Shown: positions 11,689 through 14,797 of the stretch, piece by piece | How positions within the stretch are numbered: the first letter of the stretch is position 1 | Layout of the letters: each line of letters starts with the position of its first letter | Assembly (NCBI GenBank): GCA_027031765.1 | Contig: JALVPN010000087.1 | Span: forward strand, 1 to 14,797 | DNA: 14,797 nt | From: Promethearchaeota archaeon | Lineage (GTDB): Archaea > Asgardarchaeota > Thorarchaeia > Thorarchaeales > Thorarchaeaceae | Reading direction: 5' to 3' | Notes under the pieces: model-generated | Database searches by the model: none | Seen by the model: only the letters and a program-made list of their open reading frames with translations | Told to the model about the DNA's origin: nothing | Position numbers and translations under genes: made by a program

Positions 11689-14600
11689 GTGTACAGGTCT
11701 CCAGTAGTCTTCATTCTCGTCGTTACCCTGACCCTTGCGGGCGTCGCGGTACACTCCCACGGTCAGGCACTGGCAACGCCCCGGGGGCACACCGTCGGCG
11801 TGGACGGGACAACGGACACGCCAAGTGACGGTAATACATCTCTGGCTGCTGGAACGGTCCTGTGGTCGTATCAGACCCATGGCCCGGTGCGTTCCTCGCC
11901 AGCACTGGACGATGTTGACAGTGACGGTGACCTCGATGTGGTCGTGGGCAGCGATGACGGCCGGATCTATACCATTGACGGCACCACGGGTACGGTGCTC
12001 TGGTCGTACCTGCTCCTCCAAGACGTGTCCTCCTCGCCGGCACTTGGCGACGTTGACGGTGACGGTGACGTGGACGCGGTTGTCGGCTGCGACAGTGGCA
12101 GGGTATATGCCATTGACGCTTCCGAGGGCAGTCTACTCTGGTCGCATCAGACTGGGGACCGTGTGGCCTCCTCGCCGGCACTTGGAGACATGGACGGTGA
12201 CGGTAGTCTGGAAGTTGTTGTCGGGAGCAATGATGACCGGGTGTACGTGCTCAATGGTACGACCGGCACGGTGCTGTGGTCGTATCAGACAGGGGCTGAA
12301 GTGTCGTCGTCGCCGGCACTTGGAGACATGGACGGTGATGGTGACCTTGACATTGTCGTGGGGAGCTCCGACCACCATGTGTATGCCATCGACGGCGTTG
12401 CCGGGACGGTGATATGGTCATTCCAGGCCGGGGGCAACATCTCCTCGTCACCCGCCCTAGCCGATATCAACGGTGATGGCCACCTGGATGTGGTCGTCGG
12501 CAGTCTGGACGGGAACATGTATGCCATTGATGGCACCACAGGTACCATGCTCTGGTCGTACGAGTCGTTGGGCCCTGTCGAGTCCTCGCCCGCGCTAGGC
12601 GATGTTGACCGCGATGGTGACCTGGACGTGGTGTTCGGTACTCACGGCCAGTACGTGCGTGTCCTCGACGGCGCTACTGGCACGGCTGTGTGGTCGTCTG
12701 GGACTGGGTACCCGGTATCGTCGTCGCCGGCACTTGCGGACGTTGATGGTGATGGTGACCTGGACGTGGTTGTGGGGTCCTGGGACAACAACACATACGC
12801 CCTCGACGGTCGTACGGCCAGTCCCATCTGGGCGCACGAGACCGGGGCCCCCGTGTGTTCGTCCCCTGTGGTCGGTGACATTGACGGTAACGGTGTCCTC
12901 GATGTGGTCTTTGGGAGCGGTGACCACAACGTGTATGCCCTGTCGACCTCGGCAGACGCGGGCCGTGTGTTCTGGCAGGGGCTGGCCGGTGATGCCTCCT
13001 GGCACCGTACGAGGTCTGTCCAGTCCATAGACCCCGACCACGACATGCTATCGAGCTACTCCGAGGGGCTCTACGGTACCGACATTGGGGACCCCGACAC
13101 CGATGCAGACGGGACACCTGACGGCTGGGAGGTGGCGAATGGCCTCAACGCGACGGACGGACACGACGGGGCTATGGACCCTGACGGCGACGGCCTCTCG
13201 GACCTTGGGGAATATAGGAACAGATGCGACCCCCACAGTCCCGATACAGACGGTGATGGGCTGCCTGACGGCTGGGAGGTAACTAACGGCCTGGACCCTG
13301 CAGGCACCGATGATGCTGGTGGTGACCCCGACGGTGATGGGCTGACGAACCTGGCGGAGTACCAGAATGGCTGCGACCCACATAGCAGCGACACGGACAG
13401 CGATGGCATGCCTGACAGATGGGAGCTGGAGAATGGCCTGGACCCCGCTGACGCCAGCGATGAGGGCACTGACCCGGATTCCGACGGGCTGTCGTGCTTG
13501 GCAGAGTACCAGTACGGCTGCGACCCGCACGACCCCGACACTGATGATGACGGCATGCCCGATGGCTGGGAGACCGCACATGGCCTCGACCCGACTGACA
13601 TGGGCGATGCGGGGGCCGACCCAGATGGCGACGGGCTGATGAACTCTGGGGAGTACCAGTACGGCTGTGACCCCAACAACAACGACACGGACAGTGACGC
13701 ACTGCCGGACGGCTGGGAAGTGTTGAGCGGCCTGGATGCAACAGCCAACGATACGGATGGTGACGGACTACTCGATGGCTGGGAGGTCGCCAACGGACTC
13801 GATGCAGCGGACAACGATACGGACGCTGATGGCCTCTCTGACGGCTGGGAGGTCGCCAACGGACTCGATGCAGCGGACAACGATACGGACGGGGACAGCA
13901 TGCCTGACGGCTGGGAAGTCATCAACGGCCTCGGGGCAACGGACGCCAGTGACCAGACCGACGACCCGGACGGTGATGGGCTGACCAACCTTGCTGAGTA
14001 CCAGAACGGTTGCGACCCCCACGACAATGATACTGATGGTGACGGCATGCCTGACGGCTGGGAGGTGGCGAACGGTCTGGAGCCCGTTGATGGGGGTGAC
14101 GCTGCACTGGACACCGACCATGACGGCCTCTCGGACCTCGCGGAGTACCGGTACGGCTGCGACCCAAACAATCCCGACACTGATGGTGATGGCCTCTCTG
14201 ACGGCTGGGAGGTGTCCGTGGCCATGGCCCCGCTCGTGCCCACTGACGGGCTCATCCTGTGGGCCGTCCTCATCGTGCCCAATGTGGTCGTCGTGTCTGT
14301 TGTGGCTGTCAAGTGGCACAGGCGGCGTGACCAACGTCTACGTCCATGGCGCTATGACCCGGACATCGAGTCTAGGGGTGGAAAGGCACGGAGCATGGTG
14401 GACTGGGTGTCACAGCAGGAGAGGAAAGCCGGTCTGCTCGAGGCCAAGGAGGACTTTGCTGGGGCGGCTGCGGTTTTGAGGGAGGTCGTGGCAGCACTCG
14501 GGCGGGGACGTCGTCGTCTGCTGGAGAGGGATGCCGACTGGTACGAGGCCACATGGACAAGGCTGACACGCGTACTCCGACAGTATGAGGTCAAGAAACA

Positions 14601-14797
14601 TATCGCAGAGGCCCGTGAAGCGGTACAGGAGGCAGAGGCGGGACTGGAGGGACTGTGGGACATCCGTGCACTGCAGCGGTACAAGAAGAGACTGCAAGAC
14701 ACGGAGCAGCGGGCAGCGGCCTTTCTGGCCCGGGCACGGGAACTGGCTGCAGGCACGGGCCTATTACTGGAGGAAGGGTGGGTGACCAGTGCAGAGG
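11689..14797 (+). CDS. Single-pass receptor-like membrane protein (>1036 aa, C-terminus beyond window): signal peptide, FG-GAP-like propeller, TSP3-like Ca-binding stalk, TM helix, cytoplasmic helical domain
   Basis: Manual translation in frame +1 from GTG 11689 (MYRSPVVFILVVTLTLAGVAVHSHGQALA), the first start codon after the in-frame TGA at 11632, with no stop to the window end. TM LILWAVLIVPNVVVVSVVAV (14251-14310) followed by KWHRRR. Confidence 0.93.
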   Translation, partial: MYRSPVVFILVVTLTLAGVAVHSHGQALATPRGHTVGVDGTTDTPSDGNTSLAAGTVLWSYQTHGPVRSSPALDDVDSDGDLDVVVGSDDGRIYTIDGTTGTVLWSYLLLQDVSSSPALGDVDGDGDVDAVVGCDSGRVYAIDASEGSLLWSHQTGDRVASSPALGDMDGDGSLEVVVGSNDDRVYVLNGTTGTVLWSYQTGAEVSSSPALGDMDGDGDLDIVVGSSDHHVYAIDGVAGTVIWSFQAGGNISSSPALADINGDGHLDVVVGSLDGNMYAIDGTTGTMLWSYESLGPVESSPALGDVDRDGDLDVVFGTHGQYVRVLDGATGTAVWSSGTGYPVSSSPALADVDGDGDLDVVVGSWDNNTYALDGRTASPIWAHETGAPVCSSPVVGDIDGNGVLDVVFGSGDHNVYALSTSADAGRVFWQGLAGDASWHRTRSVQSIDPDHDMLSSYSEGLYGTDIGDPDTDADGTPDGWEVANGLNATDGHDGAMDPDGDGLSDLGEYRNRCDPHSPDTDGDGLPDGWEVTNGLDPAGTDDAGGDPDGDGLTNLAEYQNGCDPHSSDTDSDGMPDRWELENGLDPADASDEGTDPDSDGLSCLAEYQYGCDPHDPDTDDDGMPDGWETAHGLDPTDMGDAGADPDGDGLMNSGEYQYGCDPNNNDTDSDALPDGWEVLSGLDATANDTDGDGLLDGWEVANGLDAADNDTDADGLSDGWEVANGLDAADNDTDGDSMPDGWEVINGLGATDASDQTDDPDGDGLTNLAEYQNGCDPHDNDTDGDGMPDGWEVANGLEPVDGGDAALDTDHDGLSDLAEYRYGCDPNNPDTDGDGLSDGWEVSVAMAPLVPTDGLILWAVLIVPNVVVVSVVAVKWHRRRDQRLRPWRYDPDIESRGGKARSMVDWVSQQERKAGLLEAKEDFAGAAAVLREVVAALGRGRRRLLERDADWYEATWTRLTRVLRQYEVKKHIAEAREAVQEAEAGLEGLWDIRALQRYKKRLQDTEQRAAAFLARARELAAGTGLLLEEGWVTSAE
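11851..12945 (+). repeat. Eight 46-aa FG-GAP/VCBS-like repeats (8-bladed propeller with DxDGDGxLD Ca-binding loops)
   Basis: The Pro codon of SSP recurs at 11899, 12037, 12175, 12313, 12451, 12589, 12727 and 12865 (exact 138-nt period). Consensus G-T-V-L-W-S-Y-x-T-G-x-x-V-S-S-S-P-A-L-G-D-V-D-G-D-G-D-L-D-V-V-V-G-S-x-D-x-x-V-Y-A-I-D-G. Confidence 0.92.
13030..14215 (+). repeat. Asp-rich thrombospondin type-3-like (DTDGDG) Ca-binding repeats: 49-aa units interrupted by three 22-aa short units
   Basis: Trp codon of the D-G/R-W-E motif at 13126, 13273, 13420, 13567, 13714 (147-nt steps), 13780, 13846, 13912 (66-nt steps), then 14059 and 14206 (147-nt steps). Confidence 0.9.

Follow-up and report, generated by a model that had tools for sequence, protein, structure and literature searches.

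We analysed a stretch of 14,797 nt (the window), which is the entire contig JALVPN010000087.1 (C87 of genome G000) of a Promethearchaeota archaeon of the family Thorarchaeaceae; it comes from a metagenome-assembled genome (MAG) of 2.95 Mb in 229 contigs, estimated to be 95% complete. The right-hand end of the window is occupied by an open reading frame (ORF) on the + strand, 11689-14796, which begins with GTG, the first start codon past the upstream in-frame stop, stays open for 1036 codons (1036 residues) with no stop and runs off the contig end. Since the window is the whole contig, the C-terminus of this gene could not be completed from it directly. The encoded protein has the anatomy of a type I surface protein, with a head, a stalk, a single transmembrane (TM) helix and a cytoplasmic tail, and it joins a known type of head and stalk to a cytoplasmic module of which we found no description. 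Its elements are the following.

11689..11763, + strand: GTG start and N-terminal signal peptide or signal anchor (residues 1-25), with a short basic n-region, the hydrophobic stretch VVFILVVTLTLAGVAV and then HSHGQA
11827..12930, + strand: eight exact 46-residue propeller blades (residues 47-414), each with a DxDxDGxxD/E Ca-type loop, as seen in the repeats, the Pfam matches and an AlphaFold2 model
12931..13068, + strand: propeller-to-stalk linker of 46 residues (residues 415-460), of low model confidence and conserved in paralogues (…AGRVFWQG…DMLS.YSE)
13069..14223, + strand: stalk of 16 bacterial-type thrombospondin type-3 (TSP3) Ca-binding repeats (residues 461-845), from the TSP3_bac match, TRF-type periods and a motif count
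14248..14313, + strand: single TM helix (residues 854-875), preceded by a P-x-D-G-[YL] motif common to paralogues
14314..14797, + strand: first 161 residues of the cytoplasmic tail (positions 2-163 of a 362-position tail profile), including a juxtamembrane RPWRYDP motif
contig C226 of the same genome, nt 3-665, + strand: rest of the tail, 219 further residues, outside the window

Every element that an earlier sequence-only reading had named was found where that reading had placed it. Its description of the head, eight blades of 46 residues free of indels and each with an Asp loop, agrees with three separate measures. The SSP motif recurs at residues 69, 115, 161, 207, 253, 299, 345 and 391, with a spacing of exactly 46 residues and zero indels; the [DN]x[DN]x[DN]Gxx[DE] loop is present in 8/8 blades; and TRF detects a 138-nt period in the blade region. 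Blade-to-blade identity averages 54% at the amino acid level (range 37-67%) and 61% at the nucleotide level.

In Pfam, the blades match PF13570 (Beta-prop_ACSF4) with 328 bits against a gathering cutoff of 133 (E=8e-98), and the same blades also match FG-GAP_3 (E=2e-35), PQQ_2 (PF13360, E=4e-29) and FG-GAP (PF01839, E=8e-7). The Pfam matches of both blades and stalk are far beyond chance. The proposal of an FG-GAP/PQQ hybrid therefore holds in that PF13570, PQQ_2 and FG-GAP_3 overlap on the same blades; such blades are not unusual, however, as they belong to a large catalogued class of propellers. A PQQ-dependent dehydrogenase was considered and rejected (TIGR03075, 48.8 bits against a cutoff of 480), the similarity being at the level of the repeat only. 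The quinoprotein, BamB, AfsK, MtsD and CglD models of NCBIfam all score the C87 protein far under their cutoffs.

An AlphaFold2 model of residues 40-470, built from a 25-row alignment, has a mean predicted local distance difference test score (pLDDT) of 88.1 and a predicted template modelling score (pTM) of 0.85. pLDDT exceeds 90 across nearly the whole blade region, and the model contains 32 beta-strands in eight groups of four. The best Foldseek match is the designed 8-bladed protein Cake8 (6tjg; template modelling score 0.95, target-normalised; root-mean-square deviation 2.1 Å; 31% identity), with further matches to v31Bagel8, BamB (many entries), Bacillus YxaL and Tako8. The closed 8-blade propeller proposed from the sequence is thus what the confident model, its 32 strands and its 8-bladed structural matches predict. 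In the linker that follows, pLDDT falls below 50 at model residues 388-408; the segment nevertheless recurs in paralogous proteins and in the consensus of the homologues.

The stalk, at residues ~461-845, carries 16 DxDxD[G/S/A]xx[D/N/C]xxE motifs between residues 470 and 841, contains 23% Asp and 7 Cys, and matches TSP3_bac (PF18884) with 77 bits against a gathering cutoff of 25 (E=9e-22), as expected from its earlier description as an Asp-rich, Ca-type stalk. The underlying DNA shows periods of 147 nt and 66 nt. The stalk also passes the cutoff of the NCBIfam model Amuc_1099 (78 vs 50), but via four repeated local TSP3 stretches that cover ~47/321 profile positions. Ten N-x-S/T sequons are found in the ectodomain, six in the stalk and four in the propeller. 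By analogy with FG-GAP/VCBS and TSP3 repeats, the motifs of blades and stalk would be expected to hold Ca2+.

Two strongly hydrophobic stretches are found in the protein. At the N-terminus, the Kyte-Doolittle score in 19-residue windows exceeds 2.0 across residues 3-24. The other stretch, residues 854-875, reaches a maximum of 2.69, lines up with the TM segment of every paralogue and is directly followed by KWHRRR, in keeping with the positive-inside rule. The single TM helix with a positively charged inner flank that had been read from the sequence is consistent with all of this.

The tail could be followed beyond the window. Tail paralogues encoded on contigs C28, C162, C115, C50 and C60 of the same MAG each extend ~357-450 residues from the TM helix to the stop. 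With the complete C115 tail as a tblastn query, C87 corresponds to query residues 5-161 and nt 3-665 (+) of C226 to residues 160-358. C226 opens with the same 9 nt that end C87 (GTGCAGAGG), in the matching reading frame, and among 457 contig ends C226(+) alone overlaps the C87 end by at least 5 nt. In the alignment, C87 (...GWVTSAE) and C226 (AEEELTARL...) tile the paralogues with no gap, where C115 reads ...GWVTQAEHDLDTRL.... The joined ORF is 1255 residues long with a tail of 380 residues, and gives one collinear profile match over positions 2-362, where the separate pieces give positions 2-163 (C87) and 162-362 (C226). As the 362-position profile includes the C87 and C226 pieces, independent evidence comes from the collinear BLAST matches to C115, C162 and C28. 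Judging by this overlap and collinearity, the C87 gene very probably continues into C226. A cytoplasmic tail of at least 160 residues had been proposed; it measures 161 residues in the window and 380 after the join.

The tail starts with KWHRRR...RPWRYDP, and its 161 residues in the window have a high content of Arg, Ala, Leu and Glu but neither Cys nor Asn. Searches for known relatives gave no significant match. In Pfam at E≤1, both pieces of the tail (window and C226), like the C115 tail, gave just sub-threshold coiled-coil noise, and Pkinase was absent from both pieces. A PDB sequence search with the tail returned nothing below E=0.5, and the best score in the ESM Atlas was 0.80, which is noise level, with nothing at or above 0.9. 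A word-index search among proteins of near lengths with residues 850-1036 found nothing at E≤1e-3 and missed the paralogues too, so that it supplied no independent full-length assembly of the gene, while a pattern search of genome contigs with the C115 tail, own-genome records being left out, gave 599 matches of which 0 were confirmed. Across Pfam, PDB, structure search and ESM Atlas, no kinase, cyclase, HAMP, MCP, GGDEF, phosphatase or DNA-binding domain was found in the tail.

The fold of the tail was modelled through the paralogue C115, which is 34-40% identical to the C87 tail, by using AlphaFold2 with a 7-row paralogue alignment. The model (pLDDT 87.9, pTM 0.68) is 100% helical, and long helices at 65-110, 116-147 and 150-197 bridge successive bundles. 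The tail is thus modelled as an all-helical rod of three-helix bundles. Foldseek against PDB gave no match at E≤1e-3, the top rows being designed repeat proteins, Exo70 and TPRs with template modelling scores of ~0.2. In another structural search, the match to a single three-helix bundle was ribosome recycling factor (Z 10.9), and the matches over longer spans were plectin SR7-9 (241 residues aligned, Z 10.0), nesprin-2 (Z 8.7) and alpha-spectrin R16-17 (Z 8.6). Since the tool itself rates Z values in this range as non-specific for helical bundles, we claim a spectrin-repeat-like shape only, and not kinship. A chemoreceptor tail of the MCP/HAMP type was rejected, since Pfam gives no match and the model does not form one long hairpin. 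In the C28 paralogue (tail at 17202-18551, L011:2203-3552, - strand), a tandem duplication of ~87 residues in the central rod gives a tail of 450 residues instead of ~360. This duplication fits a modular rod of variable length and suggests that rod length is evolvable.

Conservation along the tail is uneven. The C-terminal 37 residues (...VRDRLLMAxDLAxRFGLxDLxxEVxRLLERL) show a mean pairwise identity of 0.46-0.53 versus 0.22-0.40 elsewhere in the tail, and are also the portion kept by remote homologues. The dN/dS ratio is 0.29 for the least diverged and least saturated pair of paralogues, C28 and C162; the tail is under purifying selection.

A profile of the paralogue tails was compared with 1.84 billion representative proteins and gave 29 matches at E≤1e-3, of which 8 at E≤1e-10; some of the weakest matches, P0013 for one, are generic coiled-coil proteins. 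The real tail matches are P0002, P0003 and P0006 from the MAG itself, proteins from one Thorarchaeota MAG contig and one Lokiarchaeota-labelled protein. The Thorarchaeota contig carries three clustered tail genes: MBN2230785.1 (414 residues), MBN2230786.1 (1531 residues; propeller, TSP3 and tail) and MBN2230788.1 (971 residues). A C-terminal stretch of 60 residues of MBN2230788.1 is encoded letter for letter in genome G347, which belongs to the GTDB family of the window genome; this independently supports the placement in a Thorarchaeota family. The Lokiarchaeota-labelled match is MBD3404731.1 (370 residues). Over 400 genomes of the phylum, the tail profile was found in 9/85 other genomes of the own family and in 0/314 genomes of all other families. 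By these profile matches, the tail is confined to its own GTDB family and, as far as we found, is undescribed.

Within the MAG, a six-frame profile search identified six full tail copies (C87+C226, C28, C162, C115, C50 and C60), and partial or divergent copies on C212, C33, C94, C222 and in a second C60 gene. The outer parts of the tail bearers differ: propeller and TSP3 stalk (C87, C28, C162), TSP3 behind an FG-GAP ORF (C115), TSP3-rich or TSP3 only (C50), and a polytopic membrane protein (C60). Two tail homologues, P0007 (370 residues) and P0012 (414 residues), have no TM segment. The earlier suggestion that a tail of this size points to signalling was not supported in that form: what was found is no known signalling or enzymatic domain, but a lineage-restricted helical rod borne by paralogues with different ectodomains. 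On C115, 9250-12366 (L009:251-3367), a 482-residue FG-GAP_3 ORF is followed in frame, after a single TAG (10696-10698), by a 545-residue paralogue with TSP3, TM helix and tail; this TAG could be a sequencing error, could mark a pseudogene or could be read through (Pyl?).

The genome encodes at least 21 TM-anchored proteins with a TSP3 stalk (examples are C84:8208-11096, C84:11215-13938, C125, C199:12832-16191 and C115:13023-15674), which fall into at least three tail classes: long helical, ~110 residues and ~10-25 residues. The long-tail and ~110-residue classes have a common motif, [IV][VL][ED]W[LV], ~25-45 residues past the TM helix, and a P-x-DG-Y motif ahead of the TM helix is common to several paralogues. 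Contig breaks in the MAG often lie inside genes of this repeat-rich family (C28, C162, C50, C125, C188, C87/C226). The family therefore probably has more members than the assembly shows, and the copy numbers given are minimum values.

The ectodomain, as opposed to the tail, is ordinary: it consists of a known head and a known stalk and is widespread in Asgard genomes. Among 8000 candidates scored in a word-index search, the propeller class counts at least 3601 proteins at E≤1e-10, with matches from Planctomycetes, Omnitrophota, WOR-3 and many Asgard lineages including Thor-, Odin-, Heimdall-, Sigyn- and Promethearchaeota. Propeller and TSP3_bac are combined in at least 18 among the 120 matches listed. 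The ectodomain type is common, whereas the tail is restricted to one GTDB family. Passages in PMC9258230 and PMC9197732 credit Liu et al. (2021) with listing 'integrin repeats' among Asgard proteins. Our literature search found no paper on FG-GAP/integrin in Asgard archaea, and nothing relevant on thrombospondin in Asgard or on beta-propeller surface proteins in Thorarchaeota.

The closest full ectodomain relative, P0038 (1404 residues), is 42% identical over 813 residues and carries a kinase domain (Pkinase, E=3e-56); matches to P0038 at E≤1e-60 were found in 57/400 genomes of the phylum, from many families. A second relative, P0055 (1212 residues), likewise ends in a Ser/Thr kinase (Pkinase, E=5e-49). 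In both proteins, an ectodomain of propeller, TSP3 and TM helix is followed by a cytoplasmic linker of ~300 residues and then by the Ser/Thr kinase; the P0055 linker matches PF09743 (E3 UFM1-ligase-like). P0038 and P0055 form a candidate family of Asgard receptor kinases. Homology of the C87 tail to the linker between TM helix and kinase of P0038, or to the kinase itself, was rejected (hhalign probability 0.1%).

The C87 protein was compared with several known systems. Integrin-alpha propellers have seven blades of ~60 residues each, and PQQ-type propellers have eight. As in the PQQ-like propellers of the BamB-YxaL class and in Cake8/Tako8, the C87 head is predicted to have eight four-stranded blades of ~40-46 residues with a conserved Trp; it differs from the BamB-YxaL class in that each blade adds a DxDxDGxxD Ca-type loop, the signature of VCBS/FG-GAP_3, and there is no evidence of PQQ binding. 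Nor is it a BAM-complex lipoprotein (NCBIfam BamB, 88 bits against a cutoff of 285). To integrin alpha it is alike in the putative Ca-loop consensus GDxDGDGxxDxxVG, whose motif is read in 8/8 blades, and in the plan of head, stalk, TM helix and tail. It differs from integrin alpha in having eight blades of 46 residues and not seven of ~60, a leg of TSP3 repeats instead of thigh/calf Ig-like domains, and a tail of ~380 residues versus ~20-50 that lacks GFFKR; its top structural matches are of the BamB class and not integrin. No beta-subunit partner is known for the C87 protein, none having been sought genome-wide.

The stalk resembles that of bacterial TSP3 surface proteins (PF18884; Myxococcus CglD and MtsD), which likewise have an acidic stalk of tandem DxDxDGxxDxxE motifs and give local NCBIfam matches. 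However, the C87 protein scores 97 against a cutoff of 800 for MtsD and 76 against 400 for CglD, its host is archaeal, and it combines a type I TM anchor with a large cytoplasmic domain, as opposed to lipoprotein or outer-membrane attachment. The plan of signal peptide, 8-blade propeller, TSP3 and TM helix is also that of Ser/Thr receptor kinases with propeller sensors (P0038, P0055 and bacterial PQQ-propeller kinases, e.g. AfsK); those end in Pkinase, whereas the C87 protein ends in an unrelated helical domain. The C87-type tail is predicted, from the C115 model, to be a series of three-helix bundles joined by long continuous helices, and over long spans this model aligns best with the spectrin-repeat rods of plectin, nesprin-2 and alpha-spectrin, whose three-helix repeats measure ~106 residues. 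At ~10% identity, with no Pfam Spectrin match and at Z values in the non-specific range, this likeness is one of shape only.

Two more ORFs lie on the - strand of the window. The first, 3-6344, encodes at least 2114 residues and is open at its 3' end at the contig start; it contains NHL repeats (a 6-bladed propeller) and Ig-like segments (invasin D3, A2M bait-region-like), and is another large surface protein. The second, 6414-8720, encodes 768 residues with no Pfam match at E≤1e-3. It has a signal peptide, a Thr-rich linker, a C-terminal TM helix followed by RRRR, and HETMHALGFHH at residue 481, which corresponds to HExxHxxGxxH, a metzincin-type zinc site. Read from these motifs, it looks like a membrane-tethered metzincin-like protease adjoining surface-protein genes. 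Directly after the putative end of the gene on C226 (928-10166) come a CDF cation-efflux transporter (468 residues), an M23-peptidase-like protein (230 residues) and a TSP3-repeat giant (2194 residues), which are uninformative.

We favour, with a probability of roughly 0.55, the reading that the C87 protein is a Ca-dependent adhesin or receptor whose non-enzymatic tail acts as a scaffold for docking. On the outer side, the ligand-binding head would be an eight-bladed PQQ-like/BamB-fold propeller with a VCBS/FG-GAP-type Ca2+ loop on every blade, carried on a stalk of 16 TSP3 repeats presumably stiffened by Ca2+. One helix would span the membrane of this putative type I membrane glycoprotein, which would comprise ~1255 residues once joined to C226. 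Under the membrane, inside the cell, would lie an all-helical, non-enzymatic domain of ~380 residues. It would be made up of a PWRYDP module next to the membrane, a variable-length rod built from three-helix bundles and, as the best-conserved portion, a C-terminal helical hairpin (...RDRLLMAxDLAxRFGLxDL...). Through such a tail, a combinatorial repertoire of Ca-dependent adhesins/receptors at the surface may be linked with a single shared partner in the cytoplasm, or with one another. A docking or oligomerisation scaffold is suggested by two observations together: at least six proteins whose outer parts differ bear the tail, and some of its relatives are TM-less.

Several points weigh against this reading. 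In this genome, no neighbour or partner gene from outside the family recurs beside the tail-bearing genes, where just family members recur. The tail model is that of a paralogue and derives from a 7-row alignment, and its spectrin-like matches have Z≤11, in the range already described as non-specific. Ca binding is predicted from motifs only, extracellular topology only from motifs and the positive-inside rule, and the join to C226 from the 9-nt overlap and the continuity of homology, with no spanning read.

A rival view, the one put forward in the earlier reading, takes the protein for a true signalling receptor: when the propeller binds its ligand, the TM helix would pass the signal on to the helical tail, switching a cytoplasmic effector in the manner of non-catalytic receptor tails. 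The best support comes from P0038 and P0055, the nearest full-length ectodomain relatives, which bear cytoplasmic Ser/Thr kinases; among the top matches, bacterial kinases that have this propeller predominate, and the tail is large, under purifying selection and equipped with a conserved juxtamembrane motif and C-terminal hairpin. We nevertheless regard this as unlikely, considering that the tail has none of the kinase, HAMP, MCP, GGDEF, cyclase, phosphatase or DNA-binding domains searched for, is unrelated to the P0038 linker or kinase by hhalign (0.1%), and is encoded by a gene with no conserved signalling gene beside it. At the other extreme, the protein could be a passive component of the envelope or coat, its tail just anchoring it, spacing proteins laterally or shaping the membrane with no flow of information. 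The ectodomain type is very common, the neighbouring genes encode surface proteins (the NHL/Ig giant and the tethered metzincin-like protein), and the TSP3-stalk, TM-anchored proteins of the genome, at least 21 in number, have tails from ~10 to 450 residues. As tails of ~10 residues occur on TSP3-stalk proteins, a long tail is not needed for display. Keeping a tail of 360-450 residues across paralogues would, however, be costly for anchoring alone, and the tail is also found with no TM helix (P0007, P0012) and on the polytopic C60 protein, which points to a specific cytoplasmic interaction; a purely passive role is thus doubtful to us.

An artefact, either a mis-assembled chimera or a decaying pseudogene in a repeat-rich MAG, is very improbable. 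The assembly is indeed in 229 contigs with many breaks within family genes (C28, C162, C50, C125, C188), and the paralogue C115 is split by an in-frame TAG. Yet the C87 frame is open over 1036 residues with no stop, all domain boundaries agree with independent paralogues and with homologues in other genomes, e.g. P0008 (1531 residues: propeller, TSP3 and tail), and the C226 continuation is in frame and collinear with the paralogues.

Within the reading of a docking scaffold, a more specific version can be put forward as a speculation that we hold to be improbable as it stands: the tail would be an Asgard-specific, spectrin-repeat-like scaffold whose C-terminal hairpin couples the adhesin family and TM-less adaptors to a common intracellular partner, for example the actin cytoskeleton of Asgard archaea or a system that remodels membranes. 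If true, such a spectrin-like scaffold would be the functional counterpart, in a relative of the ancestor of eukaryotes, of linkages of the integrin-talin or nesprin type.

The significance of the C87 gene is limited by its ordinary ectodomain, by the confinement of its tail to one archaeal family and by the lack of a sequence-demonstrable link to eukaryotic proteins. Asgard archaea have elaborate surfaces and protrusions, and the proteins involved are largely unidentified. The C87 gene belongs to a large set of surface proteins with head, stalk and tail in one Thorarchaeon, and its tail family raises a testable question: what do these surface proteins grip inside the cell?

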